Shown: piece by piece, positions 24,706-43,115 of the stretch
How positions within the stretch are numbered: the stretch's first letter is position 1
How the letters are laid out: each line of letters opens with the position of its first letter
NCBI GenBank assembly: GCA_003599055.1
Contig: QZIM01000006.1
Location: 24,615-88,614, forward strand
Direction of reading: 5' to 3'
Source: Candidatus Woesearchaeota archaeon
GTDB taxonomy: Archaea; Nanobdellota; Nanobdellia; Woesearchaeales; ARS49
DNA length: 64,000 nucleotides
Notes under the pieces: model-generated
What the model was told of the DNA's origin: nothing
The model's database searches: none
The model's input: only the letters and a program-made list of their open reading frames with translations
Position numbers and translations under genes: made by a program

Positions 24706-24766
24706 TCGGTAAACTTTCCGGCTTTTTTACCGCAACACACAAAAAGCGACCTGCAATCAATAGTCT

Positions 24767-25108: not shown

Positions 25109-25259
25109 AAGCACAAGAACAAGCACGACCGCAAGACAGACCAGCTCACGCCGAAACGGAAGACCCGCCGCGCGGCCTTTTGGCATTGCCGCCTCACTAT
25201 ACCGCCTATCGTAATACACGTCTTCTCACCCACAACAAAAAATGTGAAATTAAAAAAAA

Positions 25260-25631: not shown

Positions 25632-25726
25632 ACAAAGACTTGAACAATGACGATATAAAAGGTTATGTTATTACCTGAGAGTTGTTAGTAGTTGGTTTTC
25701 AGTTTTCAGTTATCAGTGCTCAGTAT

Positions 25727-26707
25727 TCAAAGACCATCCAAAATACCGTGCGCACTCTGCGAACGCGCCAATTGCCCGAAACGCTCCCTTGTCTTTACCG
25801 CAAACTGCAACGCAAGCTGGCCCTCCTCCTCTCTTGTCACCTGCGCCATCCTGTCCGCATCAAGAAGACCATACGGATAGCCCAAAAACACCGGGTCACG
25901 CGCATTTTCGGCAAGCGCAGAAACCCCCGCGCCAAAAAGAGAACGCTCGCCCAGAACGTCACAGCGGAACACATACCGCGAACGCTCGTGCAACTTCAAA
26001 AAACACACTGACTTCTTCGCATCAAAACACCACGGCTGCCTTGGACCCTTTTGCATCAGCACCTCTGTTGCGCTCCGACCCGTGTCCGTGAGCAAAGCTG
26101 ACGTCTTGGAAACTCCGAACACGATCACCCTTGATTGCAGCGCCAAGCGCTCAATCCCCTTGCGCACATCAGTCAGCAACTCCCCCTCAAAATCAAGGTC
26201 ACCGTCACGAACGACCACTCCGCCCTCACCCACCCTATTGACCAGCCGCTCAACCATTGCAAACTCAAGCCACTTACGCACCACACCCAACACGGTTTCA
26301 GGACGCGCACGCCTGCCGCCGAGCGCAAGCAACGGGTCATACGCATCAAAAACCAAATTATTCGTCAACTGCCCATCCGTCCTTAGCAGCGACGCCTCCA
26401 ATTTCCGCTCACCGCGCGCCACAACCACCACAAACCGCTCATCGAACATCCGCTCACGGCGAGAGCCATACAAACAACCATACGTTCGCACAAAACCCAC
26501 CACCGCGCCCGCACCCGCAAGCAAAACGCCACTCCCCGCATCCACGAACGCCAAACGAGGACCCGCACCTGCATTCACCTGCGAAAAAAACTCACCCGTA
26601 AGCTCAAGAGACTCCTTCCCGCACACAATCTTTTGTCCCGCATCCGCCCTCGCACCATCAAGCGCGGACGCCACCGCATCAAAACCCAGCATACCCCAAA
26701 AAAGCAA
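25727..26707 (-). CDS. NurA-like nuclease domain protein (tentative)
   Basis: FVDAGSG, VVVRDGDL and LGYPYGLLDADRMAQV resemble the NurA D..DGS / DGSL / GYP..L..AH blocks. The assignment is by eye only. Confidence 0.45.
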   Translation of the reverse strand: MLFWGMLGFDAVASALDGARADAGQKIVCGKESLELTGEFFSQVNAGAGPRLAFVDAGSGVLLAGAGAVVGFVRTYGCLYGSRRERMFDERFVVVVARGERKLEASLLRTDGQLTNNLVFDAYDPLLALGGRRARPETVLGVVRKWLEFAMVERLVNRVGEGGVVVRDGDLDFEGELLTDVRKGIERLALQSRVIVFGVSKTSALLTDTGRSATEVLMQKGPRQPWCFDAKKSVCFLKLHERSRYVFRCDVLGERSLFGAGVSALAENARDPVFLGYPYGLLDADRMAQVTREEEGQLALQFAVKTRERFGQLARSQSAHGILDGL

Positions 26708-26735
26708 ACCGGCAAGATAAAAGAATATCGCAACT

Positions 26736-27197
26736 CTAGATAATACTCAACAACCTAAACCCGCCAAGCGTCACACCCATAACCAAAAGCCCTGCCGCAA
26801 ACACCCCCACCGCCACCGCGGCAAACGCCTTTGGCCGAGACATCCCCAAAAACCACGCCGCAGCCATCCCCGTCCACGCACCCGTCCCCGGAAGCGGAAG
26901 CGCGACAAAAAGCGCAAAACCCGGAATCCCGTATTTTTCAACATACGGGTGCACCTTCCTTCTTGTCCGCTCCATATACCGGTCAAAACGGGAACGATAC
27001 CCGTCGTGATGCATAAACCGACGATGAATAAACTCAAAAAAAACAAACACCACCGGAAGCACCGCAACATTCGCAAGATAACACAAAACAAACACGAGAA
27101 CAGGATTATAGCCCGCGGCAATCCCCACCGGAATCCCCGCCCGCAACTCCGTGAGCGGAGCCATACTCAACAGCACCGCAATAACCAGCCCGTTCAC
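26736..27197 (-). CDS. Small multidrug-export-like membrane protein (COG2426/PF06695-like)
   Basis: LSMAPLTELRAGIPVGIA.G and LPLPGTGAWTG motifs. Four TM helices. Overlaps the cca stop. Confidence 0.6.
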   Translation of the reverse strand: MNGLVIAVLLSMAPLTELRAGIPVGIAAGYNPVLVFVLCYLANVAVLPVVFVFFEFIHRRFMHHDGYRSRFDRYMERTRRKVHPYVEKYGIPGFALFVALPLPGTGAWTGMAAAWFLGMSRPKAFAAVAVGVFAAGLLVMGVTLGGFRLLSII

Positions 27198-28435
27198 AAC
27201 ACCACCCTTTGCACCCGCTCAAGAACATACTTTTCCTTTATGAGCTGCCTTACCGCATCAGAAGGCGTCCGCACGGGCCGCTTCACCCGCGCAAACACAC
27301 GACCCTGCCGCACAAACGTGTCCGCATACACCCGCCTGAAATCATTCACCGCATCACTTAACTTCACCGGAGGACCGGGCCAGTCCATCAGTTCAGGAAG
27401 CCGAGCGGCCTTCAGAACAAACCACCACTCCCCCTTCTGCCTTCTGTCCCACAACCAACCCGCATCAACAACCTGAAAATCACCAAGACGGTCCCGCACA
27501 AACTCGAACGCACGCACAAACTTTGTTCCCGCAACATCCTCTTTCCCCTCAACCGAATCCACCTTCACACGCACAAGAACCCCTTTTTTGGAAAGACGCG
27601 CAAAATCAACCTCTTTCTCCTCAAAAAAGCGGAGCGAAGGCGCCTTCAGGAACCTCTGCGCCGCCTTCACAAACCTCTCAAAATTATCCTCCGTCAACGC
27701 CGCTGCCGCATTCCGGTTTGGCTGCACCGGGTCAACAAGAACAAGCGGCCCTTGCGTCTTACTCTCATTGAGCATCAGGAGTGCCTTGCCCCTGAACGCA
27801 TTATTGTAATCAAGAACCACCTTTGGCTTCCACTTTACCGCAGCCCTGAGCAGCGGCAAAAAACCCTTATAGTAAATGACGAGAATATCCGCCACGTGCC
27901 CCGAGAAGCCGCGAATGTAACTTTCCGCACCATAACACTTTGCCGCCTTACAAAACTTTTTCACAAGACGAATATCCCCCTTGAACGCCTTTCCTTTTGT
28001 GTTCACCCAGCTCACGTGCAAGGGCGAAAAATCAGTCACGTTTTGCGCATCGGAAGACTTTTTCACATCAAGCACAGGAACTATCTCGTACTTTATCCCG
28101 TTTCGCACCCAAAAATAATCACGACTCCCGTGAATGCGCTCAAACGGCCATTTTGCCAACGCACGCTCAAGCAAGCCGCTGATGTCCCTATCCTTTTGCG
28201 AGAGGTCAAATTTTACAAACACGTCAACATCATAATCACCCGACAACCACGTGTCCTTGGCATAACTTCCGCCAAGAACGGCAACCGCCTGAATTTTTTT
28301 CGCCTTCAACTCCGCGTTCAACCGCCTCAAAAAATCATTCACCGCATCAAGCGTTCGCGCGCGCTCATCCTTTTTTGGCTCAATTCCCGCAAGAACCTCC
28401 CTTAACAGCACCGAGACGCGAACCATACCCCGCAA
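27194..28435 (-). CDS. cca: Archaeal class-I CCA-adding tRNA nucleotidyltransferase
   Basis: VLGGSYAKDTWLSGDYDVDVFVKF is the class-I nucleotidyltransferase motif. Length is about 410 aa. TATA spacing favours the Met at 28426 as the start. Confidence 0.85.
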   Translation of the reverse strand: MRGMVRVSVLLREVLAGIEPKKDERARTLDAVNDFLRRLNAELKAKKIQAVAVLGGSYAKDTWLSGDYDVDVFVKFDLSQKDRDISGLLERALAKWPFERIHGSRDYFWVRNGIKYEIVPVLDVKKSSDAQNVTDFSPLHVSWVNTKGKAFKGDIRLVKKFCKAAKCYGAESYIRGFSGHVADILVIYYKGFLPLLRAAVKWKPKVVLDYNNAFRGKALLMLNESKTQGPLVLVDPVQPNRNAAAALTEDNFERFVKAAQRFLKAPSLRFFEEKEVDFARLSKKGVLVRVKVDSVEGKEDVAGTKFVRAFEFVRDRLGDFQVVDAGWLWDRRQKGEWWFVLKAARLPELMDWPGPPVKLSDAVNDFRRVYADTFVRQGRVFARVKRPVRTPSDAVRQLIKEKYVLERVQRVVL

Positions 28436-28482
28436 AACTGTTCCCGTGATTTATAAGCTTTCGGTCGCGCGCAGTACCAAAT

Positions 28483-28491
28483 GTTTAAATA
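28483..28491 (+). promoter_or_regulatory. TATA box (GTTTAAATA) for the antiporter gene
   Basis: Centred 27 nt upstream of the ATG at 28514. Confidence 0.5.
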
Positions 28492-28513
28492 GCGTCCAGA
28501 CACAAAAAACAGG

Positions 28514-29683
28514 ATGGCCGATGCACTCATCACCACGACTGCCATCGCAGTCCTCCTCTTTGTCGGCGTCATTTGCAGCTGGATTGGAAAAAAGCTCACC
28601 GTCCCCGACGCATTACTGCTCATTTTAGCCGGTCTCGGATTCGGCCAGGCAACCTTCAAAGGAAAACCCCTCATCGAATTCCCCGAACTCTTCCTTAGCT
28701 CCCTTGCCATTTTGGCGCTCGCCATGATTGTCTTTGACTCCACCGCGCGCCTGCGCATCCGCGAACTTGACACGTTCTCCCTCAAAGCAGTGCGGCTTAT
28801 GTTCAACTTCACCATCTTCACCCTCATCCTCTTCACCCTCGCCAGCCACTACATCTTAGGCATCTCGTGGTGGACCGCACTCCTCTTCTCCGCAATCATG
28901 GTCGGAACAAGCCCCGAAGCAGTCCTCACCTCAGTCGGCAAAAGCAAGGCCGCAACCCTTCTCAAACTCGAAAGCATCTTCAACACCCCCCTTACCATCA
29001 TCCTGCCGTTCCTGGTCATCGACCTTATGACCAACGTCAAAAGCAGCATCCTGTCCGAAGTTGTCGAACAACTCACCCCCTTCATCATGCAAATCATCGT
29101 CGGAATCGGCGCAGGCATCTTTGTCGGGCTCATCCTGTTCAAACTCGTCCAACACGTCTATGCAGAAGTGTACTCCCCCCTTGCCGTCATCGTCGCCGCA
29201 CTCCTTGCCTACGTCCTTGCCGAAAACCTCGGCGGGTCAGGCGTATTGTCCGTTACCGCCCTCGGACTCTTTTTCGGCAACGTCTACGTCAAGGAAAAAA
29301 TCACCCTCCTTGGCATTGAAACCGTCCTTGCAAAAGCACTCTACATCCTTGTCTTCATACTCACCGGCCTTATCATCAAAGTCCCCCTCACCAAAGAATT
29401 CTTCATCACCTCCGGAATCCTGTTTGGAACCTATATTGCCATTCGCACCCTTGCCGTCTACGTTTCCGTTCGCGACGAAAACCTCCCCTTCCACGACTTC
29501 GTCCTTATGGCCCTTTGCGCGCCCAAAGGCATCGCAACCGCCGCAGTCGTGTTCTCATTACTCGTCATCAAGTCGCCGGACATCCTCATCATCTTGGATA
29601 TGACCTTTGCATTCATCCTCTACAGCATTGTTGTGAGCTCGATTACCCTTATGCTCACGCGCGAACAACACCAACACCACTAA
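28514..29683 (+). CDS. Cation/proton antiporter (CPA1/NhaP-like)
   Basis: 389 aa with about 11 TM helices and a typical Na+/H+ exchanger layout. No regulatory C-terminal domain. Confidence 0.7.
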   Translation: MADALITTTAIAVLLFVGVICSWIGKKLTVPDALLLILAGLGFGQATFKGKPLIEFPELFLSSLAILALAMIVFDSTARLRIRELDTFSLKAVRLMFNFTIFTLILFTLASHYILGISWWTALLFSAIMVGTSPEAVLTSVGKSKAATLLKLESIFNTPLTIILPFLVIDLMTNVKSSILSEVVEQLTPFIMQIIVGIGAGIFVGLILFKLVQHVYAEVYSPLAVIVAALLAYVLAENLGGSGVLSVTALGLFFGNVYVKEKITLLGIETVLAKALYILVFILTGLIIKVPLTKEFFITSGILFGTYIAIRTLAVYVSVRDENLPFHDFVLMALCAPKGIATAAVVFSLLVIKSPDILIILDMTFAFILYSIVVSSITLMLTREQHQHH

Positions 29684-29687
29684 CGCA

Positions 29688-30071
29688 ATGAAAACCGTCA
29701 TCCTTGACACCAACTTTCTCATCGAATGCGCCAAAAACAAAGTCGACATTCAAACGGAACTCACCCGCATACTTGACTTTTCCTTTGACATTGCCGTCCT
29801 TGACAGAACCCTTGAAGAACTCGACGTTGTCGCCGCCCGCGGCGGCAAAGAAGGAGCAGCCGCAAAACTCGCACGCACAATTTTGCTCACAAAAAAAATA
29901 AACATCATTGCAACCTCCGGCGGGCACACGGACAAATTACTTATTGAACGGGCAGATGACAACCACATTATTGCAACCATGGACCGGGAACTTAAGCAAA
30001 AACTCAAAAAGAAAAAACAAGACGTTATTATCATCCGCGGAAAAAAGAAATTGGCAGTGGACGGAGCGTAG
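29688..30071 (+). CDS. PIN-domain protein, Fcf1/Utp24-like
   Basis: ILDTNFLI at the N-terminus and IIATMDRELKQKL near the C-terminus match the archaeal Fcf1-type PIN fold. Confidence 0.7.
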   Translation: MKTVILDTNFLIECAKNKVDIQTELTRILDFSFDIAVLDRTLEELDVVAARGGKEGAAAKLARTILLTKKINIIATSGGHTDKLLIERADDNHIIATMDRELKQKLKKKKQDVIIIRGKKKLAVDGA

Positions 30072-30072
30072 A

Positions 30073-30363
30073 TTACTTTGCCATTCGTTCAATCAATTCA
30101 TTAATCCGATAGGCAAGGTCATCGTCCTGGCCCAACGCAAGCGCATACGCGCTCGCAAGACCAGAACGCGCATCACCAAAATTTCCACCGGCCAGATACG
30201 TTCTCGCATCGCGCAAGTAATCAAAGAGGTCCACATCATTTAACCCCCCTGCCTGATGAAGAATACTCTCCAATTCCATAAGTGCTTTTCGCGCTTCCAT
30301 ACGCGATTTGGCACCGACTCCCTTTAAGTTTGTTTTCCCAAATTCCACCCCAACCCACCGCAA
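30073..30363 (-). CDS. Hypothetical protein
   Basis: 96-aa ORF. The start is uncertain, with an internal Met at 30300. Confidence 0.4.
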   Translation of the reverse strand: MRWVGVEFGKTNLKGVGAKSRMEARKALMELESILHQAGGLNDVDLFDYLRDARTYLAGGNFGDARSGLASAYALALGQDDDLAYRINELIERMAK

Positions 30364-30467
30364 GCTTTATAAACACCCCTTTGGGTTTCCCGTCCCGTGA
30401 GATGCCGCTTGGGTTCTCTCCAGACCCGCGGCATTGATGCAAACCAACACCGGAGGAACACAACACA

Positions 30468-31046
30468 ATGTATTACCGCATGGAAGTTTCAGACCACATC
30501 AGAGTCCCGCCCCGATTCTTCGCCTTTTCGCGAGAAGAAGCAGTACTCAAGGCAGTCAAGCAAAAATACGACGGAATGATAGACCCGCAGCTCGGCGTCG
30601 TCATCGACGTTGCAACCGTCAAAAACATCGGCGAAGGAATCATCATCCCGGGCGACGGCGCAAGCTACTACGACACCACGTTTGAACTGCTCGTATTCCA
30701 ACCGGAACTTCAGGAAGTCCTCAAAGGCAAAATCAAGGACATCGCAGACTTCGGCGCATTCATCACCCTTGGCCCCATCGACGGCATGATACACATCTCG
30801 CAAACCATGGACGACTTCGTCTCGTTTGCAAAAGACAAAACCCTTGCCGGCAGAGACAGCAAGCGGTCACTACGCATCGGCGATGCGTGCCGCGCACGCG
30901 TCATTGCCGTATCATTTAAAGACGTCACCAACCCCAAAATCGGCCTTACCATGAGACAACCCGGACTTGGCCGCCTTGACTGGCTCGACAAGGAAGAAGA
31001 AACACCCGCTGAACCAAAAGAAGAAAAGAAATCCAAGGAGAAATAA
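30468..31046 (+). CDS. rpoE: DNA-directed RNA polymerase subunit E' (Rpo7)
   Basis: MYYRMEVSDHIRVPPRFF is the Rpo7 N-terminus, followed by an S1 domain (GKIKDIADFGAFITLGPIDGMIHISQ). GGAGGA lies upstream. Confidence 0.9.
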   Translation: MYYRMEVSDHIRVPPRFFAFSREEAVLKAVKQKYDGMIDPQLGVVIDVATVKNIGEGIIIPGDGASYYDTTFELLVFQPELQEVLKGKIKDIADFGAFITLGPIDGMIHISQTMDDFVSFAKDKTLAGRDSKRSLRIGDACRARVIAVSFKDVTNPKIGLTMRQPGLGRLDWLDKEEETPAEPKEEKKSKEK

Positions 31047-31051
31047 ACACC

Positions 31052-31240
31052 ATGAGCAAGAAAAACGCCTGCAAAAAATGCAAATACCTCTATGACGGAC
31101 AAGAATGCCCTGCCTGCAAGTCAGCACAACCCGTCCAAAACTGGAAAGGCAGAGTTGCCGTCCTTGACCTTGACAACAGCGGCATTGCCAAAAAAATCGG
31201 CGCCGAACAAGGCGGCGAATACGCAATCAAGGTGAACTAA
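31052..31240 (+). CDS. spt4: Transcription elongation factor Spt4 (RpoE'')
   Basis: 62 aa with the Zn ribbon CKKC...CPAC followed by W.G... Confidence 0.85.
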   Translation: MSKKNACKKCKYLYDGQECPACKSAQPVQNWKGRVAVLDLDNSGIAKKIGAEQGGEYAIKVN

Positions 31241-31528
31241 ATGGAACTGAACATAACAACAGAAAAGAAAAACTCCCTGCTCGGCAGAACAGAAGTATAC
31301 GGAACCGTCACGTTCGAAGGCGCAACCCCAAGCAACGCGCAAGTCTCTGAAGCACTTGCCAAAAAATACGGCAAAGACACGGACACCGTCGTTGTCAAAC
31401 ACATCCTTGGCAAATTCGGCGGCATCACCGCAACCTTTGAAGCAGACGTGTACGACACCAAAGAACAACTCCTCAAAACTGAGCCCAAGAAGAAAGAAAA
31501 GGCCGCGGGAACCGCGCCGGCAGCGTGA
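31241..31528 (+). CDS. rps24e: 30S ribosomal protein eS24
   Basis: N.LLGR.E....V.F.GATPS.......LAKKY is the S24e signature. The start abuts the spt4 stop. Confidence 0.88.
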
Positions 31529-31764
31529 TTTTAATGGCAGACGCAAAAAAACCAGCAGCAAAAGGAGCAGCACCCGCCAAAAAAGGAGCCGTCCGCGGCG
31601 TTTGGCAACTCTTTGAAAAGAAAGGAGATGCACTAGTTCGCAAAAACAAAAGCTGCCCCAAATGCGGACCCGGATTCTTCCTTGCAAACCACAAAGACCG
31701 CCAAGTCTGCGGAGCCTGCGGATATTCTGAGTTTGTTAAGAAAGCGGAAACGGCGAAGAAGTAA
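31525..31764 (+). CDS. rps27ae: 30S ribosomal protein S27ae (eS31)
   Basis: Zn ribbon [24 protein letters not shown]. 4-nt overlap with rps24e. Confidence 0.88.
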
Positions 31765-32088
31765 ATGACCAACCTTTACATCGCGGCAGAACGCGACGCT
31801 CAAGGAATCCGCGCACTCCATATAGGCTACGTTACCGGCGCCATCAGCGCAGTCTCAACCATCTCCGCGCAAAAAATTATTGAAATTGCCGACGATACGC
31901 AACATCCCGAACGCACTGCACGCATCGCAGACTACGTTCTTGGCATCTTTCGCAACCACACGCCGGAACCCGTGCAATTCACGCACGTTATTAACGGCAT
32001 CCTCCCAAAGGGACACAAGGAAAACAGCCTAGAACCAGTACCCTTGCACCTCGAAGAAATGCTTTCCGAAAAAATCCGTCAGAATTGA
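31765..32088 (+). CDS. Hypothetical protein
   Basis: 107-aa ORF starting directly after the rps27ae stop. Confidence 0.45.
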   Translation: MTNLYIAAERDAQGIRALHIGYVTGAISAVSTISAQKIIEIADDTQHPERTARIADYVLGIFRNHTPEPVQFTHVINGILPKGHKENSLEPVPLHLEEMLSEKIRQN

Positions 32089-32858: not shown

Positions 32859-32956
32859 GAGGAGAGCCTCACGCGGGAGGCGACACCCTCTTCGTAAGCA
32901 CCAACGCTTTATTTTGGAGGTGCGAGAATCTGAATGTTAAGAAGTGGTGGTTGTAT

Positions 32957-34114
32957 TTATTTGTTTTGTTCATTGTTTAACGCTGCGCCCTGATCCCCAT
33001 CAAGAAATATTATGAATTCTTTGAGGAGTTGAAGACAAAACTCTGCCTCAGATTTACTAGTCTCCTGAGTTAGCCTCTGAAAATTGTGTTTCATAAAATC
33101 TTCTGGTTCTATTGATAGCTTCTCGCTTATTGACTTATTGAGACGTGTGCGATCCATGTGCGAATATGTGTTTCTTATCTCACCAAACAAATTCAGCCGT
33201 TTCGAGAAATCAGGAACTTTAGACCCTATCAAATCAATAATTCCTATTTTTTTAACTATGCTTTGTAAAGCATTCAACTCCAGTCGATCCACAATCAATC
33301 CTACTTCATTATACAATGTTTCGTCTTCAATCTGGTGACAAACTCTATTTTGAATTGATCTTTTCAATAAATGTTCCATACACGCTGCCGAGCATATGAT
33401 TGATGCAACGTAGTTTCCCAGGATGAATGACGTGTGAGCTTCATTGTATAGATAAACACCCAATTCATAGTATTCAGAGTAAAGCAATTCAGGAAACGGG
33501 ATCTTGTCCAAGTTGCTAATGAAAGCAGGCGCACTCTTCTCAAAAAAGCTCTTCAATGACAATTCGGATGCCTTTTCCTTAGAATAACTATTTAGAATAT
33601 TGACATATAGCGGCGGTAGAGGTTGGACGTGACTTTCGGCGAGTGTTGAAAAAATCATCTCATTGAAGATTGCTTCGTTATTGAGTAGCTTTCTCACAAA
33701 CTCATCTACTGCATTTTTAATCGCTAAATCGGATTTACCGCTGACTATGATTCGCAAATGATTGAATTTGTCTTTGAATGCTAAAACGAATCCATCTCGT
33801 ATTTTGAGTTCCTTGTCAAAACCATGTTCTTTTATTGCTTTCAAAACCCACTTATTCGTTTGACTGTCACCAACACAAATCAAGTCAGAGTTGTAATAAT
33901 CTTCATCGGTCAATTCCGAGGCTAATTTTGCAGAATTTATTGACAACACTTGCTTTGAATGTGAATACAAAAGAGTCTGCACTGTTTGAATAAGTGCAAC
34001 TGCAAAGACAACCATGATTCCTTTGTCATTATCTCCCACCGTGATAATTAAGGGGTTCTTGGAGGACTTAAGGAAATCGGCGACTTTCTCTTGACCCTGT
34101 TCAGATGTCATCAC
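32957..34114 (-). CDS. HEPN-domain protein with an N-terminal alpha/beta domain of unknown function
   Basis: The C-terminal half has AACMEHLLKRSI ... LFGEIRNTYSHM, which contains the canonical HEPN R-N-x3-H motif. The N-terminal half has three strand-Gly motifs (LIITVGDN, LICVGDS, RIIVSGKS). No signal peptide. Confidence 0.6.
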   Translation of the reverse strand: MMTSEQGQEKVADFLKSSKNPLIITVGDNDKGIMVVFAVALIQTVQTLLYSHSKQVLSINSAKLASELTDEDYYNSDLICVGDSQTNKWVLKAIKEHGFDKELKIRDGFVLAFKDKFNHLRIIVSGKSDLAIKNAVDEFVRKLLNNEAIFNEMIFSTLAESHVQPLPPLYVNILNSYSKEKASELSLKSFFEKSAPAFISNLDKIPFPELLYSEYYELGVYLYNEAHTSFILGNYVASIICSAACMEHLLKRSIQNRVCHQIEDETLYNEVGLIVDRLELNALQSIVKKIGIIDLIGSKVPDFSKRLNLFGEIRNTYSHMDRTRLNKSISEKLSIEPEDFMKHNFQRLTQETSKSEAEFCLQLLKEFIIFLDGDQGAALNNEQNK

Positions 34115-34124
34115 GGCCTCGCAA

Positions 34125-34319
34125 TTATCTAATGACTCTTTTTGCCACGCTTACGATTCCCAAGAACCCGAGCACGATCCCAATGAAAACACCTGCAAAG
34201 ACCGCCAAATTTCCCGCGCCGGGTGAAATGCCAGTTGCTTGCAAGATGATGCCTGCAACCACAAGAGTGCCTACGATGCCTGTCGCACCTAAACCAAGAC
34301 CGAAGATTTTTTGTGCCAT
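34125..34319 (-). CDS. Gly-rich 2-TM small membrane peptide
   Basis: 64 aa with two Gly/Ile/Val-rich helices containing GxxxG-like spacing. It sits 1 nt after the upstream stop and 10 nt before the downstream start. Confidence 0.55.
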   Translation of the reverse strand: MAQKIFGLGLGATGIVGTLVVAGIILQATGISPGAGNLAVFAGVFIGIVLGFLGIVSVAKRVIR

Positions 34320-34320
34320 T

Positions 34321-34602
34321 TTATCGGCCTTTGTTCCAGTATCCTTTGCGCCTCAATCTTGTGTTTATTGATCCATCGCCGTTTGACATAGTGACAACAC
34401 TTCGACCATAGCTTTTTCCTACCACTTGCACGTTGACGTAACCGTTTGAGCGGCTTGTCATTCCTGCAGCAGTTCTTGTTGCCTTAGAGCCTCCAAACTG
34501 GTGTTTTTCAGGGGCGCGTACATTCGCCAGCCGGAAGGGGGTTCCATCCGTAAAATAGCCCGAGTCACCATCATGCCAGTGATCAATTCGTTTTCGTTTC
34601 AT
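34321..34602 (-). CDS. Minimal SNase/thermonuclease-like protein (93 aa)
   Basis: HDGDSGYF...FRLANVRAPE...KSYGRSVV...G.INTRLRRKGY is co-linear with staphylococcal nuclease DGDT..FRL..VDTPE..DKYGR....G..VN..LVR.G. The Asp of D-T-P-E is replaced by Arg. Start at 34602 with GGAGGT 8 nt upstream. Confidence 0.6.
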   Translation of the reverse strand: MKRKRIDHWHDGDSGYFTDGTPFRLANVRAPEKHQFGGSKATRTAAGMTSRSNGYVNVQVVGKSYGRSVVTMSNGDGSINTRLRRKGYWNKGR

Positions 34603-34813
34603 TTTATTAACCTCCAAGGGTTCAATACTTTCCCGCAGGCTGTGAAGTATAAAAAGGTTATGAATTAAGCCATAATGAAAATCAACAATGTGACTTAAAA
34701 CGTTACTTATTTGACAAACATTGTACAACTATTTACGGTTTAGTCCACAATGAACAGAAACGCTTATAAATTAAACCTTCAAACTACTCAAAAGTGGGGG
34801 TAAAAGTTTAAGA

Positions 34814-35884
34814 ATGGGAATGAACACTTCTAAGGTTATGGGTGATACAACCCGTAAAAAGAGGGCTGATATCTTCAAAGACATAGTTGATAGCTTACGA
34901 AACGGCAGTCAAACAATACTTCAGATATCTAAAGCAACTGACATTAATTGGGAAACTGTAAAAAATTGTCTTGAAACGCTCAAAACGCTCAGTATCATTC
35001 AAGAAGAAGAAAAAAACGGAAAAACATTCTACTTCGTAGATGAAAGTAAGCTTATTCAAACTGAAGAGAACACTCTTTTGGGCTTGCCATTAACCGAAGA
35101 TCGAAAAAATGCAACATATGGTCTGTTCAAACGAATAATCGAACGATGGGAAAAGATACGCCCTGACCGAAAAATCAACAAGACATTTTTACATAAGATT
35201 CTGGTCAAGGTCGTCAAGAATAATGACAAGGATCTGAAATTCCCACATGGTTGGTATCTCTTTGGCGAGTGCGCAGTATTACAATGTGATCCAATGGACT
35301 GCAAAGAACAACCTTATCAAATTGGAACCGAATATGATGCAAAAATAGATGTGGTCGTAACTGAGTATTCTCAATTATCTTCAACACACGAGTTAATGCA
35401 AAGACAATATACTGACGAAGGGAATGAACTGTACACGTTGAGACTAAAAATCAGCGATAAACTTCTCAATAAATTCACCGAGACTTCAGTTCATGAACTC
35501 AAAAGAAGCCTCAAAGATTTTGTTTTCAGTTTCAAAAAAAATGAAGAAAACGAAGAACTCCTTGAATATTTGAATGGATTCCTTTCAATAGTTACTCGTC
35601 TTATCAATGGTCTTAAACTTGGAGAACTTGACGACATCAGACCAGTCATCAATGAAACGTTTATGTCAATTTGGGAGCTTCTTGCGACTTACAATCTTTA
35701 CAAATCTCTTGTCGAGCGCGGATACTACGAAAAGGCAACTATACGAAAATACTATACTCTACGCATGGGCAATTTGAAACACATTGCAGAAAGTTATCTA
35801 TCTGCACTACACGACTATTGCCCACCGTTACTAATCCCTCAAGAAGACCCACTGCGCAAGCTTATAACTCCTCAGGCATCCTGA
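34814..35884 (+). CDS. N-terminal winged-helix protein with a large uncharacterised C-terminal domain
   Basis: The wHTH-like segment is IFKDIVDSLRNGSQTILQISKATDINWETVKNCLETLKTLSII. The remaining roughly 280 aa have no recognised motif. The gene is divergent from the HEPN operon. Confidence 0.6.
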   Translation: MGMNTSKVMGDTTRKKRADIFKDIVDSLRNGSQTILQISKATDINWETVKNCLETLKTLSIIQEEEKNGKTFYFVDESKLIQTEENTLLGLPLTEDRKNATYGLFKRIIERWEKIRPDRKINKTFLHKILVKVVKNNDKDLKFPHGWYLFGECAVLQCDPMDCKEQPYQIGTEYDAKIDVVVTEYSQLSSTHELMQRQYTDEGNELYTLRLKISDKLLNKFTETSVHELKRSLKDFVFSFKKNEENEELLEYLNGFLSIVTRLINGLKLGELDDIRPVINETFMSIWELLATYNLYKSLVERGYYEKATIRKYYTLRMGNLKHIAESYLSALHDYCPPLLIPQEDPLRKLITPQAS

Positions 35885-36269
35885 TCTCAATAAGATTTCT
35901 GAACTCAGCAAAATCCTGAATGTTCCGCGTAACTATGCAAATTGCATTACCCTTTTTCGCCAAAACCACGTGCAAAGCATCAGGAAAGTTGTTATTTGAT
36001 AGTTCCCGAGCTTGTTTTTCATCGCCATCTGCTCTCAGAATGGTAATCACCTGCTCTTTTTTCAAATCACTAACTAACCTGTTAATCTCCTCTTCAGAAC
36101 GATACTTCTTGAACTCCTCAATAACCCAATCAGAAATAACCAACGAATACTCACCTTCTCTAATTTTACGAAAGACATTAAGCGCGAACTCACCTAAATC
36201 CCGGAAACGGTCTTTGCGACCTTCAAATAAGTCAATGTAGACATTAGTGTCTACGTAAATTTTATCCAT
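35862..36269 (-). CDS. PIN-domain (VapC-like) nuclease
   Basis: MDKIYVDTNVYIDL, ..ISDWVIEE.., DALHVVLA.. and CIVTRNIQDF supply the PIN acidic residues. No adjacent antitoxin ORF. Confidence 0.7.
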   Translation of the reverse strand: MDKIYVDTNVYIDLFEGRKDRFRDLGEFALNVFRKIREGEYSLVISDWVIEEFKKYRSEEEINRLVSDLKKEQVITILRADGDEKQARELSNNNFPDALHVVLAKKGNAICIVTRNIQDFAEFRNLIEIRMPEEL

Positions 36270-36356
36270 TGCCCGACTTATTCAGGAGGAATATAAAAAC
36301 ACTACTCCGGTTCACTATCAATAATTTTATAAGCAGCGTTCCTAAACTAAATCATA

Positions 36357-39062
36357 GTGAAAGAGCGCGCAAAAGAAAGGATTTCGCAGTTAGTCGCTAA
36401 ATATGAGCGTCTGAAAGCTGAAGGTAGATTGAAGTCCTATAATGAAGAGATGACGAAAAAGGACTTCATCCTTCCGTTATTCGAAGCGCTTGGATGGGAC
36501 GTTTATAATACGAATGTAGATGAAGTGTCTGCCGAAGAAAAAGTTTCCAAAGGACGCGTTGACTATGGATTTAGAATCGCGGGAATCCCCAAGTTCTTCC
36601 TTGAAGCAAAAGCCCTTAAAGCTGACCTTGAGGACCTAAAATGGGCTGAACAAGCAATCAATTACTCTTGGCACAAGGGCGTCGTTTGGGCAGTCCTTAC
36701 TGACTTTGAAACAGTTCGTGTATTCAATGCAGAAGTCAAAACTGCCAATCCTGCGCAAAGCCAATTCTTTGCTCTGTACACAAATCAATTTCTCGATAGA
36801 TTTGAGCAGTTATGGTTGTTATCCCACGAAAGTTTTGAAAAAGGCTTAATCAATGAAGAAGCAGAGAAATGGGGTAAAAAACTGAAGAAAATCCCTGTTG
36901 ATAAACAACTCCTTTCAGACTTCACTTCATTCAGGGAGTTGCTTTCTAAGAGCGTTTTAAAGAACAACCCACAGAAAAAACTCACTGAAGAAGATATCGA
37001 CGAGTCAGTGCAGAGGATACTTGACAGACTCATTTTCATTAGAACGACTGAGGACAAAGAGATTGAACCCCCGCACTTAATGCCTCTTCTGAGAGAAGAT
37101 ACTGGCAAAAGAGTTCTCAAGAAGTTAAACGTGCTTTTCAGATACTATGATGAAATCTATAACAGTAAATTGTTCCAGCCACACCTATGCGAAGACCTTG
37201 AGATTGATGATCACGTCCTAGAACACATAATTCAAGGTTTGTATTGTTCAAAAGAGTGGAGCATACACTACAACTTCGCCTTATTGGATGCTGACATTTT
37301 AGGAAGCATTTATGAGCAGTATTTGGGACACATTCTAAAGAAAACAGAAAAACGAGCTACGCTTACTGAAGGAAAAATACACAGAAAAGAACAAGGAATA
37401 TACTATACGCCCACATATATTGTTGATTACATCGTCAAGAACACCATTGGTGAATTGGCAAAAGACAAAAAGTTTGATATGGACAAGATAAAGATTCTCG
37501 ATCCTGCTTGCGGTTCAGGTTCATTCTTAATTAAAGCTTTTGACTTCCTCAATCAACATCATAGCAGAAAAGGAACTGGAGAACAGACAAAGATTGACAC
37601 AAGCGGAGTTGCCGCAACTTTTACTAAAAAACTCGAACTTCTCAAAAATAACATTTACGGCGTTGACTTGGACCCAAAAGCTGTTGAAATCGCGCAACTC
37701 AACCTCCTTCTAAAAGCAGCTGAGAAAAAGCATAGACTGCCAACACTCCAAAACAACATCAAATGCGGCAATTCATTAATAGACGACCCAAATATTGCAG
37801 GACAAAGGGCCTTCAAATGGGAGGATGAGTTCAGCACAATAATGAAAGACGGCGGATTTGATGTCGTGATTGGAAATCCGCCTTATGGCGCATCATTCAA
37901 TACTCAGGAAAAAGAATACTTCAATTCAAGATACACTTATGTAAAATCTGTTTATGAAAGTTACCGTTTATTCATAGAACTAGCTTCAAAATTAGTAAAG
38001 GATAGAGGATATATGGGGCTAATTGTCCCAAACACGTGGTTTTATTTAACAAATGCTGAAAACATGAGAAAGGAAATTTTGTCAAATTATTCAGTAACTA
38101 AATTGATTAATCTTCCACAAAGCGTTTTTGAGGATGCGACAGTCGATACTTGCATAATAATATTCAGAAAGGAACCTCCAAAAAATAATCAAGTTGAAAC
38201 TCACTTTTTTAATTATAAAGATAAAATTAACAGCCTTGAATGTATGAAATATTCTGAATTAAAGCAAAACGACTTTCTAAAAAATGCTGAATGCATAATT
38301 AATATCAATCGCAATGCAGAAGATGTTAAACTAATTTCAAAAATTAAAAAGCAACCTCAAGTTTTAGATGAGTATGTTACAATAATAACTGGGATAAAAC
38401 CATATCAAGTCGGAAAAGGTGTGCCTCCTCAAACAAAAAAGGATTTAGAGGAGAAAAACTTCACTGCAACTTATCAAAAAGATAAATCATTTAAACCTTG
38501 GTTAACTGGGAAATTTATCTCCAGATACCAAGTTTTACCAAATAAAGAATTCATAAAATATGGTGCTTGGCTTGCAGAACCAAAAATACCTGATATTTTT
38601 GAAAAGGATAGGATAGTTTTACAACAAATACGGAATCCCTCATTGCCCCGTCGTATTATTGCCACTTTTATTAAAGGGGGAATATATACTAATAATGGAA
38701 TTCATAATCTAATCCCGAAAAATGACGAGCAGACTTTTTGGATTCTTGGAATATTGAACTCTAAATTGATGAATTATTACTTTGCATCACATTACAATGA
38801 TGTAAATATCAAACCATCTAATTTATACAGTTTACCTTATCCTGTTTATGATAACAAATCAAAACTATCAGAACTCGTATCAAAAATTGTTTTTATCGGT
38901 CAAAAACTCACACAATTAGAAGGTAAACAAACCGATGAACAGGTTCAATTAGAAAAAGAATTCAAAAAATTGGATAAGGAAATCGATGAAAAAGTTTATG
39001 AAATATATGGCTTGAATGAATCTGAGCGAAAAGTAATAGAAGACCACCTCAAAAGTAACTGA
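36357..39062 (+). CDS. Type IIG restriction-modification fusion enzyme (PD-(D/E)xK nuclease + N6-adenine methyltransferase + specificity region)
   Basis: The N-terminus has HsdR_N-like FILPLFEALGWDV...GRVDYGF...FFLEAKA (D...ExK). Methyltransferase motif I is ILDPACGSGSFLI and motif IV is VIGNPPYG. 901 aa with a GTG start. Confidence 0.8.
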   Translation: MKERAKERISQLVAKYERLKAEGRLKSYNEEMTKKDFILPLFEALGWDVYNTNVDEVSAEEKVSKGRVDYGFRIAGIPKFFLEAKALKADLEDLKWAEQAINYSWHKGVVWAVLTDFETVRVFNAEVKTANPAQSQFFALYTNQFLDRFEQLWLLSHESFEKGLINEEAEKWGKKLKKIPVDKQLLSDFTSFRELLSKSVLKNNPQKKLTEEDIDESVQRILDRLIFIRTTEDKEIEPPHLMPLLREDTGKRVLKKLNVLFRYYDEIYNSKLFQPHLCEDLEIDDHVLEHIIQGLYCSKEWSIHYNFALLDADILGSIYEQYLGHILKKTEKRATLTEGKIHRKEQGIYYTPTYIVDYIVKNTIGELAKDKKFDMDKIKILDPACGSGSFLIKAFDFLNQHHSRKGTGEQTKIDTSGVAATFTKKLELLKNNIYGVDLDPKAVEIAQLNLLLKAAEKKHRLPTLQNNIKCGNSLIDDPNIAGQRAFKWEDEFSTIMKDGGFDVVIGNPPYGASFNTQEKEYFNSRYTYVKSVYESYRLFIELASKLVKDRGYMGLIVPNTWFYLTNAENMRKEILSNYSVTKLINLPQSVFEDATVDTCIIIFRKEPPKNNQVETHFFNYKDKINSLECMKYSELKQNDFLKNAECIININRNAEDVKLISKIKKQPQVLDEYVTIITGIKPYQVGKGVPPQTKKDLEEKNFTATYQKDKSFKPWLTGKFISRYQVLPNKEFIKYGAWLAEPKIPDIFEKDRIVLQQIRNPSLPRRIIATFIKGGIYTNNGIHNLIPKNDEQTFWILGILNSKLMNYYFASHYNDVNIKPSNLYSLPYPVYDNKSKLSELVSKIVFIGQKLTQLEGKQTDEQVQLEKEFKKLDKEIDEKVYEIYGLNESERKVIEDHLKSN

Positions 39063-39296
39063 TTTTTGGCAAAATAAACCAGTTGTCGATTTTTTAGCTC
39101 TGTCTGGGGACTGCTTTTCATCGTTGATACATTTCATCAAGCAGTTTGTTGTTGCATTATACTGTTTTGCCAGCTTATCCTTGAACTGGGTGCTCAAGCC
39201 AAGAAACTCCAAGATTTTCTGGTCTTTGAAAACTGAGTGCAACTCTCTCAAAACTATTCTGGTTCCCTTACCAGACGATAAATGACGGGATTTTCA

Positions 39297-39368
39297 AGCC
39301 TCCGGAGGGATTTGAACCCCCGACCTACTGCTTACGAAGCAGTCGCTCTGCCGCTGAGCTACGGAGGC
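39297..39368 (-). tRNA. tRNA-Thr (anticodon CGU)
   Basis: Folded by hand as GCCUCCG/CGGAGGC acceptor, GCUC/GAGC D stem, ACUGC-UUCGUAA-GCAGU anticodon arm and GGGGG-UUCAAAU-CCCUC T arm. No encoded CCA. Confidence 0.9.
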
Positions 39369-39802: not shown

Positions 39803-40264
39803 ATGGACGAACATTCCTACAAAGAACTGCAAAAAAAGCACACCCTGCTCCCCGAATGGGCAGACATCAACCGCGAATTCGAAATCTGCACCATCGACAC
39901 CGAACACTTCCCCTTACGCATGATACTTCGCAAAATGGCCGAGCGCATCGAGCCCGTCCTTGAAATCCTCGAGCGCGCAATCACCCCCGACCCCAACCGG
40001 TTCACCGACATGTACGAATGCAGGTGCATCTCAAACGGCGACAAAAAACAGCTCCTTGACGTCTTTCGCCACTTAATGGAACACCACCGCCTCCTCCTTG
40101 AAGCAGACCTTACCTGCGAAGAAAAAACCGAACTTGAAACCATCCGCAAAGTCCACGACCTTTGGCTATCAGAGAAAAAACACGTCATCGGATTCGTCAA
40201 AAAGCTCCGCGCGTGCTGGCAAAAACACGTCGAGCCAAAAGAACTCCTTGACTACTTAGGCTAA
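39803..40264 (+). CDS. Hypothetical protein
   Basis: 153-aa helical ORF. The stop overlaps the adk start. Confidence 0.5.
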   Translation: MDEHSYKELQKKHTLLPEWADINREFEICTIDTEHFPLRMILRKMAERIEPVLEILERAITPDPNRFTDMYECRCISNGDKKQLLDVFRHLMEHHRLLLEADLTCEEKTELETIRKVHDLWLSEKKHVIGFVKKLRACWQKHVEPKELLDYLG

Positions 40265-40887
40265 TGAACATCATCCTCCTCGGACCCCAAGGCTCAGGAA
40301 AATCAGTCCAGGCACGGCTTCTTGCAGAACGATTCGGCTTCCACCACCTCGCAACCGGCGACCTCATCAGGCTCGGCATTGAACAAAAAGATCCGGACGC
40401 ACTTGCCATCAAACAATATACCGACCAAGGAAAACTCGTCCCCACAAAAACCGTCATCGCATTCGTCAAAAAACACCTCAAAGAACACAACCTCTTTGAC
40501 GGCATCCCCCGAACACTCCCCCAGGCAGAAGCACTTGACACCCTCGTCCACATCGACCTTGTCATCGCCCTTGAACTTGACGATAACACCGCAATCAAAC
40601 GCATCGGCTCGCGCAAGACCTGCCCCACCTGCCAGGCAGTCTATGGCCCCACCAACCCGCCGCGAAAAAAAGACGCCTGCGACCACGACGGAAGCGCGCT
40701 TGCCGTCAGAAAAGACGATTCACCGGATGCCATCAGAAGACGCCTTGCCATCTACCGGGAAAAAACCGAACCCCTCATCGAGTATTACAAGCCGCGCGAC
40801 ATCGTCTTCACGATTGATGCATCACAAGACATTTCCGCAATATTCAGCGAAATAAGCGCCCTTATCGAGCAACACTCTGCCGAATAA
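40264..40887 (+). CDS. adk: Adenylate kinase (long, Zn-lid type)
   Basis: P-loop LLGPQGSGKS, GDLIR, and the lid CPTC....C.HDG. Confidence 0.85.
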   Translation: MNIILLGPQGSGKSVQARLLAERFGFHHLATGDLIRLGIEQKDPDALAIKQYTDQGKLVPTKTVIAFVKKHLKEHNLFDGIPRTLPQAEALDTLVHIDLVIALELDDNTAIKRIGSRKTCPTCQAVYGPTNPPRKKDACDHDGSALAVRKDDSPDAIRRRLAIYREKTEPLIEYYKPRDIVFTIDASQDISAIFSEISALIEQHSAE

Positions 40888-41758
40888 ACTCGGTCGCATA
40901 ACAGCCCTTTTGCAGGAAAAAAGAGAGAACCACTTTCTTTTTCCCCGAAAAACACTCATCATCCTCAAGCGAGCCCACAACCAACTCTTTTACCTCACAC
41001 CAGACCGCGCGAACAGACCCCTCTGCACTCACCTCAGGCAACTCACGAATCACAAAATCAGACGGGCGAATCCCTTCCTCCTCAAGAACCGACCGTGTTG
41101 CACCGTCATTCACTTCAGTCCCAAAACCCACCACCGGTAAATGCTCTTCCGCTGAACGCATCGCCGCGCGGTTCCAGAGCAAACTTTGATACGCGTGCAC
41201 GTAAAATATGAGCTTTTTGCGCCCGCACTTTCGCAGCGCGCCAACCACATCACTTCCTCTCACTTCAAGCCCGAGCAGAGCAGCCGCCTGCCGAAACTCC
41301 CTCTTCACGATATGCTTCCCAACCTGCGCATTCTGCGTGCTTAAACGCTGGACTCCGTAGAGATTGCGAAACTTGGGCAAAAACACCGGAAGCAAATCCA
41401 GCCCCCGCAGGGTAATTCTGAAACGATTCCCCTCCAAATCACCAATGTGCACCGGCTCATCACCAAAGCCAAGCAACATTACTGAAACCCCCTGCACATT
41501 AACGTTTTCCAGCCGTTCAGCACTGATGCCGTCCGCAGAACACACCTGGCTTGTTACGGCAATCTTATCCTTAAGCCCTGCAAAACCAAACCGCGTTTCA
41601 GGAACGGAGAGCGCTCTTGCGATGTCCCTTATCGCATCCGCAGTATTCCGATTGCGCTTTTTGAGCAGAAAATAGACAAAGCGACCGGACTCTTTTGGGA
41701 CAATGGTACTGACTTCATCAACGATAAAGTCTTCGGGAAGATGCTTGAGGACTGCCAT
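40862..41758 (-). CDS. truD: tRNA pseudouridine synthase TruD/Pus7-like (short form)
   Basis: PEDFIVDEV at the N-terminus and FGFAGLKDKIAVTSQ (catalytic Asp motif). Convergent 26-nt overlap with adk. Confidence 0.75.
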   Translation of the reverse strand: MAVLKHLPEDFIVDEVSTIVPKESGRFVYFLLKKRNRNTADAIRDIARALSVPETRFGFAGLKDKIAVTSQVCSADGISAERLENVNVQGVSVMLLGFGDEPVHIGDLEGNRFRITLRGLDLLPVFLPKFRNLYGVQRLSTQNAQVGKHIVKREFRQAAALLGLEVRGSDVVGALRKCGRKKLIFYVHAYQSLLWNRAAMRSAEEHLPVVGFGTEVNDGATRSVLEEEGIRPSDFVIRELPEVSAEGSVRAVWCEVKELVVGSLEDDECFSGKKKVVLSFFLQKGCYATEFIRQSVAR

Positions 41759-41770
41759 ATTTGAATAAAA

Positions 41771-41845
41771 CGCGCCGTGGAGGATTTGAACCCCCGGCCT
41801 ATGGGTTAGGACCCCACCGCTCTATCCAGGCTGAGCTAACGGCGC
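41771..41845 (-). tRNA. tRNA-Arg (anticodon CCU)
   Basis: Folded by hand as GCGCCGU/ACGGCGC acceptor, GCUC/GAGC D stem, GUGGG-GUCCUAA-CCCAU anticodon arm and GGGGG-UUCAAAU-CCUCC T arm. G at position 32 is unusual. Confidence 0.8.
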
Positions 41846-41879
41846 ATGAAAACAGACCGCAAAAACACGGTATAAAAAC

Positions 41880-43115
41880 CTACCGCCACGTCCTCTTGGA
41901 CCTTCGCACTTCCTTTGCAATCGAGGAAATCCAGTTCAGCGCGCTAAAATACGGCATCACGAGCGTGTAGGCAACAAACGGCATAATATTGCGCAAGAAC
42001 TGCTCCTTAAACAACTTATGCGCTGCGTGAATCAAATACAGGCCGATTATAAGCGTAATCGTCAAAGGCAACGTCACCTGCACGTTGCGCGCAAGCACAA
42101 ACTGCTTGAGCGTCGGAATGCTCGTCAATTGCGCCCAAAAATAGCCGTCAATTGAAATGCTGCGCAGGAAAAACTCAACCCACCGGTCCATTGCATCAAA
42201 CGAAATGAGCCCGATATTCAGGATAAGAAGGCCGACCGCCAAAACATTCACCGGCATTTGGAACGTTCCCAAAAGGCCGTGCGCCTTATTGAAAATCATC
42301 TTCCGATAGTTCCACATATTGTAAATGTAGCCGCGGCTCCACCTTGTTCGCTGCTTCCAAATTGCCTTCGGACTTGCCGGAACGTGCGTGTATGACGTCG
42401 CGCGCGGCTCCATAACCACCCTGTACCCCGCGTGCCGCAAGCGAAGCGCAATCTCAAAATCCTCCGTCAAATTCTCACGATTGTCATCAAAACCGCCAAC
42501 CTTTCGCAGCGTCTTTACCCGAAACATCGTGCAGGCGCCGTGCGTGATTGCAAGCGTGCCGAAATTATTCATCAAAAAGCGCGTGAGTGAAGACATCACA
42601 TACTCAAAACGCTGCATCCGCTGGAAAAAGTTCTTTGGCTCATCAACGCGGATACGGCTGATGACCGCGCCCGCCCGCTCATCCTTAAAATGCGGAATCA
42701 TCCAATGCAGGACATCCCTTTCCACACGGCTATCCGCATCCATCACCACAAAAAACTCGCCCCCGGCATTCTTGAGCGCAAGATTGAGCGCGCTTGCCTT
42801 ACCGCCGTTTGCCTTATTGATAAGCGTCACTTCCGGATGGGATTTGATAAACTTTCGCACCAGCGCAGCGGTCCTGTCCGTACTCCCGTCATTCACGATA
42901 ATAATCTGCTTTTTGCCTTTCGGATAGTCAACCTCAATGAGCGATTGCAGCGTGCGCAAAACGGTCTTTTCCTCGTTCCACACCGCCGTTCCGAACGTGA
43001 CCTTGGGAACCGCATCCTTTCGCGGACGCCTTGCAGGCATTGCCAAATAGCTCAGCCACACCAAACTCAGCCAAAGCGTCACGAACGTGATAGCCCAAAC
43101 TATATACTGTAGCAT
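41880..43115 (-). CDS. Processive family-2 glycosyltransferase (membrane-embedded, PgaC/NodC-like)
   Basis: IIIVNDGSTDRT, VVMDADS (DxD) and QRTRWSRG (QxxRW), with TM helices at both ends. Confidence 0.8.
   Translation of the reverse strand: MLQYIVWAITFVTLWLSLVWLSYLAMPARRPRKDAVPKVTFGTAVWNEEKTVLRTLQSLIEVDYPKGKKQIIIVNDGSTDRTAALVRKFIKSHPEVTLINKANGGKASALNLALKNAGGEFFVVMDADSRVERDVLHWMIPHFKDERAGAVISRIRVDEPKNFFQRMQRFEYVMSSLTRFLMNNFGTLAITHGACTMFRVKTLRKVGGFDDNRENLTEDFEIALRLRHAGYRVVMEPRATSYTHVPASPKAIWKQRTRWSRGYIYNMWNYRKMIFNKAHGLLGTFQMPVNVLAVGLLILNIGLISFDAMDRWVEFFLRSISIDGYFWAQLTSIPTLKQFVLARNVQVTLPLTITLIIGLYLIHAAHKLFKEQFLRNIMPFVAYTLVMPYFSALNWISSIAKEVRRSKRTWR

Follow-up and report, generated by a model that had tools for sequence, protein, structure and literature searches.

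Does a tight operon of three genes in an archaeal genome encode a defence system of its own, or do its genes belong to some other unit? This question is raised by genes g1, g2 and g3, located on the minus strand of a 64,000-nucleotide (nt) stretch of contig QZIM01000006.1 (hereafter the window) from a Candidatus Woesearchaeota archaeon. In a first-pass annotation, they had been described as a candidate defence operon that combines a nuclease, a membrane peptide and a sensor-HEPN protein. Our analysis pointed to a different unit. The conserved genes were those for a tandem winged helix-turn-helix (wHTH) protein, an overlapping PIN-domain protein and a divergently transcribed mini staphylococcal nuclease (SNase; g1), sometimes joined by a Gly-zipper peptide such as g2. 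This unit was seen chiefly in DPANN archaea, in many cases near restriction-modification (RM) genes. The slot after the SNase gene is a cargo position, which usually holds a gene for a membrane protein or lipoprotein and here holds g3. Tentatively, and with a confidence that falls slightly short of even, we regard the wHTH/PIN/mini-SNase block as a regulated nuclease module of the toxin-antitoxin (TA) or abortive-infection (Abi) kind, in which g3 is orphan cargo.

Inspection of the sequence and of its list of open reading frames (ORFs) placed three tightly packed genes on the minus strand, in the order g1-g2-g3. The first (34602..34321) encodes a 93-residue mini-SNase homologue of the 'thermonuclease family', recognised from its ORF, its Shine-Dalgarno (SD) sequence and a family profile. 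The second (34319..34125) encodes a 64-residue Gly-zipper peptide with two transmembrane (TM) helices, recognised from hydropathy, composition and relatives, and the third (34111..32957) a 384-residue ORFan. The SD sequence GGAGGT (34615..34610) stands 7 nt upstream of the g1 ATG. A single nucleotide separates the g1 stop codon from the g2 ATG, and the g2 stop codon is followed after 10 nt by a GTG (34114) and after 13 nt by an ATG (34111). The SD-led arrangement with short spacers that had been described earlier was thus confirmed, and g1-g2-g3 form one tight, co-transcribed operon. The 385-residue length previously given for g3 corresponds to an existing ORF that starts at the GTG, but the true start is most likely, as far as sequence context can tell, ATG 34111. 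This start codon is preceded at 5 nt by GAGG, the public gene call has 384 residues, and the g3 homologue of an organism of approximately 30% GC (guanine plus cytosine; locus L001) starts at the aligned ATG, itself preceded by GGAG and 5 nt.

Relatives of g1 were numerous. The family comprised at least 126 clusters of proteins of approximately 93 residues with 57-83% identity, several of which are named thermonuclease or micrococcal nuclease, while many carry a precomputed PF00565 assignment. Since the family is already annotated, g1 is not new. On its own, g1 scored 19 bits against the Pfam SNase model (cut-off 21) and a relative from locus L028 scored 28.8 bits, above that cut-off. A profile built from 37 family members matched SNase chains only when compared with PDB (best E 1.1e-3), which bore out the previously noted co-linearity of g1 with staphylococcal nuclease. 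In the alignment, D13, R24, R29, A30, E32 and Y65/R67 of g1 correspond to Asp21, Arg35, Asp40, Thr41, Glu43 and Tyr85/Arg87 of SNase. Equivalents of the catalytic residues Arg35, Glu43 and Arg87 are present, with R24 and E32 invariant and R67 nearly invariant among the 37 sequences. The Ca2+ site is incomplete: Asp21 is kept as D13, whose equivalent is invariant in the family, Asp40 is replaced by R29, in agreement with the earlier reading of the motif, and Thr41 by A30. At least 90% of family members have Arg in place of the Ca ligand Asp40.

The resemblance to SNase (PF00565) thus extends over the OB-fold core and includes the equivalents of Asp21, Arg35, Glu43, Tyr85 and Arg87. In contrast to SNase, g1 is only 93 residues long and ends near SNase residue 110, without the C-terminal third, helix 3 and Tyr113/Tyr115. 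As a natural minimal SNase with an Arg instead of a Ca ligand, it is of enzymological interest. No signal peptide was found in its sequence. Genome matches of the family were mostly from DPANN lineages (Woese-, Pace-, Nano- and Nanohaloarchaeota), with additional matches in Methanosarcinales and a few bacteria; collections of viral contigs, phages and plasmids yielded no matches to g1.

Gene neighbourhoods were compared in 18 non-redundant mini-SNase loci (18-20 were examined), which had been collected with one peptide pattern. A wHTH gene was located directly upstream of, and divergent to, the mini-SNase gene in 10 of the 18 loci, and in six a PIN gene was convergent with the wHTH gene. A search that started from the wHTH family instead identified convergent PIN genes overlapping the wHTH 3' end in L024, L025 and the P0149 contig; an 89-residue SNase-like protein is also encoded in L024. 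Members of the g2 family adjoin the wHTH gene in both L028 and L029, and in L028 the SNase gene as well. The conserved partners of g1 are therefore the divergent wHTH gene and the PIN gene, both outside the trio named earlier, and the trio is not the conserved unit.

The wHTH gene of the window (34814..35884, plus strand), divergent partner of the mini-SNase gene, encodes a 356-residue protein with tandem wHTH domains, seen as Pfam wHTH matches below cut-off, and a C-terminal helical domain. Its family comprised 41 clusters, mostly from Nano- and Woesearchaeota. An AlphaFold2 (AF2) model with a predicted local distance difference test (pLDDT) score of 86.3 showed two winged helices and a helical domain. 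Foldseek searches of PDB and BFVD with this model returned wHTH/RPC62-like folds only, at E 5e-3 or worse, and no enzyme fold. The PIN-domain protein (135 residues; 35862..36269, minus strand; Pfam PIN E 1.1e-8) is encoded convergently, and its gene shares 23 nt with the 3' end of the wHTH gene (35862..35884). Convergent, overlapping wHTH-PIN pairs were also found in L001, L005, L009, L012, L022, L024, L025, L028 and the P0149 contig. In relatives that are 22-50% identical (L001, L005, L024, L025 and L028) the overlap measures 3-32 nt, which is unusual for a PIN gene.

This pair recalls VapBC in that a small PIN protein is encoded beside a DNA-binding protein in a mobile island. It differs from VapBC in that the partner is a tandem-wHTH protein of 330-390 residues rather than a small VapB, and in that the two genes are convergent and overlapping instead of co-transcribed. 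The PIN protein matched the NCBIfam VapC model at E 0.073 only, and no ORF that could complete a VapBC layout was found in the 87 nt that lie upstream of the PIN gene, between it and the RM gene.

A divergent intergenic region of 211 nt (34603..34813) separates g1 from the wHTH gene and holds the SD sequence of g1. Approximately 45 nt upstream of the g1 ATG, it contains an AT-rich, TATA-like TTTTTATA, a candidate promoter element of g1. Three short repeats of the TAAACC(T/G)T / AAGGTTTAA type, which may represent operator half-sites for the wHTH protein, occur at 34732..34811, along with short inverted repeats. At the equivalent place in L028, AAAGGTT(T/A)TGTT direct repeats were observed.

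The distribution of g3 was unlike that of g1. Searches for relatives of g3 covered approximately 15 billion proteins in total. A word-index search of a 5.8-billion-cluster index returned g3 itself and P0002, at 90% identity, and no other protein; an exhaustive phmmer search over 1.84 billion (1.84e9) representatives returned g3 only. No relatives were found in plasmids or phages by tblastn, nor in a scan of viral contigs. Neither the whole protein nor its halves matched a profile in Pfam, PADLOC, NCBIfam or PHROGs, or a PDB sequence, at E up to 10. Comparison with the L001 homologue yielded a ratio of nonsynonymous to synonymous substitution rates (dN/dS) of 0.04 at a dS of approximately 1.1. 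This strong purifying selection indicated that the gene is functional, and g3 is, from all its sequence comparisons, a lineage-specific orphan.

Whether g3 is a HEPN protein bears on several interpretations of the locus. HEPN domains have been described as carrying an Rx4-6H motif in which a polar residue follows the Arg, located at the end of helix 3, an upstream acidic residue in helix 2, typically as part of E-x3-[KR], and an insert that separates these two helices (PMC3710099). Motifs of both types, R314-N-T-Y-S-H319 and E247-H-L-L-K251, occur in g3. The latter lies 67 residues upstream of the former in a predicted helix and is one of five E-x3-[KR] sites, among which no alignment singles out the equivalent one. 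An AF2 model of g3, based on a two-sequence alignment, had a pLDDT of 35.6 and was unusable; Foldseek searches with it returned noise only, such as S-adenosylhomocysteine hydrolases. The helices it suggested with low confidence (208-231, 235-259, a helical insert, 300-318 and 322-332) would fit the four-helix up-down bundle of HEPN domains (PMC3710099), and the same low-confidence model divides g3 into a predicted N-terminal alpha/beta half and a predicted C-terminal all-alpha half.

In size, in this predicted division into halves, in its R-N-x3-H near a predicted helix end, with Asn next to the Arg, and perhaps in the E-x3-K upstream, g3 resembles sensor-HEPN effectors (CARF-HEPN proteins Csm6/Csx1 and Abi-type proteins; PMC3710099). 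Unlike them, it matches none of the HEPN and CARF models of Pfam and PADLOC, and comparison with PDB sequences and folds gave no match. The ORFs of the window, which encode 19,065 residues, contain R[NDH]xxxH two times, and 3.7% of shuffled g3 sequences contain it; because this is near chance frequency, the motif by itself has low evidential weight. Of the HEPN assignment made earlier, the motifs were thus found to be present, but a matching HEPN profile or structure was not found, and identification of g3 as a HEPN protein is a reasonable, unverified guess.

Two further proposals on the N-terminal half of g3 were rejected. A CARF domain was dropped because g3 matched no Csx1, Csm6 or CARF profile and, in a BLASTP comparison, did not resemble the Csa3-like protein from L030 (E 0.094). 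Co-linearity with the protein encoded at 54685..55317, suggested in the first-pass annotation, did not hold up, the best BLASTP match covering 6 residues at E 2.7. The second R[NDH]xxxH of the window is located at residue 64 of that same plus-strand ORF product (54685..55317), and comparison of the two proteins revealed no similarity. No tandem (CRISPR) array was found in the window and no CRISPR or cyclic-oligonucleotide synthase genes among the genes of the island in which the operon is located.

These results bear directly on the model of the first-pass annotation, according to which g1 as nuclease, g2 as pore peptide and g3 as sensor-HEPN RNase constitute a dedicated defence system. The tight spacing of the three genes behind one SD sequence, their recurrence in the same order in L001 and in L002, a near-identical second sample of L001, the purifying selection on all three and the HEPN-like motifs of g3 agree with such a system. 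In line with the expectation that the trio would fall outside known systems, g1, g2 and g3 matched none of the families of PADLOC-DB 2.0.0 at E up to 1, and the only match was that of a neighbouring RM protein. HEPN and thermonuclease genes have, moreover, been found sporadically coupled in Pgl/BREX operons (PMC3710099). As in that coupling, one defence island contains thermonuclease-like and putative HEPN genes along with a PglX-like/type IIG methyltransferase gene. Unlike BREX loci, the island lacks PglZ, PglY and the remaining BREX core genes, its methyltransferase reached only 153 bits against BREX PglX (cut-offs 500), and g3 is no more than a putative HEPN protein.

Distribution decided against the three-component model. 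Because g3 has a single relative, 90% identical, the trio is limited to the window and to one other block, the closely related one of L001/L002, with approximately 75% nt identity; no co-occurrence in unrelated genomes was found beyond the window contig and L001/L002. In contrast, g1 belongs to a family of more than a hundred clusters, with other genes downstream, and g2 relatives accompany SNase or wHTH genes without g3 in L028 and L029. In the only other trio, g2 is frameshifted. A self-contained three-part system is thus very unlikely and the least supported of the rival interpretations. With the failure of the three-part claim, the value of the locus lies in the redefined module and not in the trio.

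Genes that follow the SNase gene vary between loci, and most of them are membrane-associated. They encode two families of lipoproteins, YdjM-like proteins, a ClpP-like protease, a Cas4-like PD-(D/E)XK nuclease and TM peptides. RM genes, including complete type I systems, were located at most 4.5 kb away in at least 6 of the 18 loci. Genes for C5 methylases, HerA/mad8-like ATPases and, both in L024, GmrSD and ParE were also found near SNase/wHTH loci. Such neighbours allow an interpretation in which there is no system at all: the mini-SNase, together with adjacent membrane proteins and lipoproteins, would serve nucleic-acid scavenging or an envelope function in DPANN-type archaea, and g3 would be unrelated cargo with a chance motif. 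The gene after the SNase gene does encode a lipoprotein, YdjM-type or TM protein in most loci, the SNase family is concentrated in DPANN lineages, and the R[NDH]xxxH frequency and absence of a HEPN profile match reported above agree with a chance motif. However, the SNase has no signal peptide, its gene is strongly linked to the wHTH/PIN pair and to RM systems, the module is located in a recently acquired island of a 52%-GC host, and the presence of E-x3-K and R-N-x3-H in an all-alpha half of g3 fits the HEPN topology. A scavenging or envelope role is, on this evidence, unlikely.

That island was delimited by comparison with a 95-96%-identical relative (L023). This relative is syntenic with the window up to 32933 and again from 39285, and carries approximately 3.1 kb of other genes between the breakpoints, including genes for an AAA_14/DUF4143 ATPase and an MPAB-family protein; 32934..39284 is therefore a variable island, of 6.35 kb and low GC content. 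Between 33 and 39 kb of the window, GC content was 0.30-0.43 and GC skew near 0, as compared with 0.47-0.57 and -0.2 to -0.3 in the flanks, and the near absence of skew relative to host DNA marks the island as recent. Its contents are g3, g2, g1, the genes for the 356-residue wHTH protein and the PIN protein, and a gene for a 901-residue type IIG RM enzyme. The setting beside RM and PIN genes that had been noted at first inspection was supported by Pfam, PADLOC and synteny with L023, and the defence island around the operon is real and was acquired recently. Outside it (1..32000 and 40000..64000), the plus strand of the window was uniformly asymmetric whatever the gene orientation, with a GC skew of -0.1 to -0.4 and an AT skew that was often +0.2 to +0.4.

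Comparison with L001 identified the part of the island that had moved. Nucleotide identity to L001 was 74.7% over exactly 36306..32865, from the PIN gene to g3, and the flanks were unrelated. The five-gene block for PIN, wHTH, mini-SNase, two-TM peptide and g3 is thus horizontally acquired, with g1-g3 as its distal part. Per 100 nt, identity to L001 was highest in g3 (75-93%), and amounted to 58-81% in g1, the wHTH gene and the PIN gene. The proportion of synonymous differences (pS) was 0.44-0.59 in 33011..34111 (g2-g3) and 0.79-0.84, which is saturated, in 34321..36306 (g1, wHTH and PIN). The lower divergence of g2-g3 hints either at an exchange of the cargo more recent than that of the rest of the block or at codon-level constraint.

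A non-coding element of approximately 76 nt (32865..32940), common to the window, L023 and L001, marks the left island junction. Ungapped comparison of the window with L001 (approximately 4118-4193) gave 50 matches in 76 positions (chance mean 18.9, standard deviation 3.7), and 66 of the 76 positions matched in L023 (approximately 12402-12477), which lacks the island. The element had no match in Rfam and no fold better than those of shuffled sequences. It may represent an att-like site used in recombination, or the scar left when the island turned over earlier.

Evidence for mobility raises the alternative that the module would help to maintain a mobile element instead of defending against viruses, the island being a decayed integrative element. 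A possible analogue is the par region of plasmids RK2/RP4, in which ParB, an SNase homologue encoded in parCBA, is divergent to the parDE TA pair. Here too, mobile DNA carries an operon with an SNase homologue that has a toxin-type gene beside it or divergent to it; in the window, the SNase gene is divergent to that of a DNA-binding protein and accompanied by a toxin-type PIN gene. Movement of the block as a unit between unrelated genomes, the variable site flanked by a tRNA gene, the shared 76-nt junction element and an insertion sequence in L029 would all suit maintenance. The module differs from the par region in having no resolvase (ParA) or ParC and no plasmid matches, and no sequence relationship to it emerged apart from the SNase fold. 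Moreover, no integrase, resolvase, Rep or partition ATPase was found among the island ORFs or at any other locus examined, the island has no flanking direct repeats, and g1 and g3 had no matches in plasmid, phage and viral-contig collections. A maintenance function thus appears distinctly unlikely.

We return to the regulated nuclease or toxin module, the likeliest of the interpretations considered. Judging from domain types, gene arrangement and neighbourhood, the wHTH protein would bind the 211-nt divergent region and repress both the SNase operon and its own gene. The PIN protein, as an RNase, and the SNase homologue, as a DNA/RNA phosphodiesterase with an altered metal site, would be the growth-arresting effectors. 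If R-N-x3-H is a HEPN site, g3 could also be an effector with RNase activity, and the two-TM peptide would be a membrane partner of the nucleases. Release of repression upon infection or loss of the element would then lead to growth arrest of the abortive-infection or addiction type.

Several observations weigh against this proposal. The mini-SNase may not be a nuclease, because the Ca ligand Asp40 and the Tyr113/Tyr115 region are lost from its sequence. Only fold, as modelled, and position point to a regulatory role of the wHTH protein, and the convergent orientation of the PIN and wHTH genes is unlike that in a classical TA operon. Proximity of RM genes was counted in 18-20 loci obtained with one peptide pattern, without a background control. 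None of g1, g2, g3 and the wHTH protein matched a PADLOC model, while the PIN protein gave weak matches only, and for g3 there was neither a HEPN profile match nor a structural one and a motif frequency at chance level.

A bolder version, in which the wHTH/PIN/mini-SNase/Gly-zipper unit would be an unnamed defence or addiction module, widespread in archaea (largely DPANN), with a swappable effector slot, and g3 would represent a new family of sensor-HEPN effectors, too divergent to be recognised except by structure, seems rather improbable. Literature searches returned no account of DUF7342, this SNase subfamily or a wHTH/PIN/SNase module. Neither PADLOC nor the literature searched contains the module as redefined here, and its recognisable parts are standard domains of conflict systems. 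Archaeal immunity is poorly charted, especially in DPANN, and the redefined, RM-associated module is a concrete candidate for tests.

The neighbours of the transferred block are readily assigned. The type IIG RM enzyme is encoded at 36357..39062 on the plus strand, within the island and outside the five-gene block. It matched Pfam models Eco57I (1.6e-42), N6_Mtase, TaqI_C and HSDR_N, as well as the PADLOC model REase_MTase_IIG (E 2.7e-120). A tRNA-Thr(CGU) gene (39297..39368, minus strand) forms the right border of the island.

The peptide g2 corresponded to its initial description as a Gly-rich two-TM peptide, with two hydrophobic segments and 13 Gly among 64 residues in GxxxG-type (Gly-zipper) spacing. 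As a candidate holin-type or small pore-forming effector it has the two TM segments, but it matched no family in Pfam, PADLOC, NCBIfam or PHROGs. The L001 (2745..2931) and L002 homologues are frameshifted by a deletion of 8 nt within the inter-helix loop, and contigs from two sequencing runs share exactly this indel. Despite this indel, the halves of g2 showed a dN/dS of 0.05-0.10 relative to L001, with 0.05 and mostly synonymous changes in the second helix. In L001/L002, the gene may have become a pseudogene recently, or it may be split or subject to recoding.

A metagenome scan identified relatives of g2 in three further loci, L028, L029 and L030. The L028 relative is 66% identical over its full length. 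There, a divergent wHTH gene is followed by genes for the peptide, an 89-residue SNase, a second two-TM peptide and VKOR, and a PIN gene converges on the wHTH gene. In the comparison of the window with L028, g2 was the best-conserved component (66% identity), followed by the SNase (43%), PIN (30%) and wHTH (22%) proteins. L029 has a complete g2 copy adjoining a divergent wHTH gene. Directly after the g2-like gene, at the expected position of the SNase gene, it has an IS3-family transposase pair (1163..2325). In L030, a g2-like fragment adjoins a gene on the opposite strand and upstream of it (387..1097), which encodes a Csa3-like CARF and winged-helix regulator (Pfam HFX_2341_N, Csa3_N and DUF6293_C). 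This Csa3-like regulator occupies the place that is held elsewhere by the wHTH protein of 330-390 residues.

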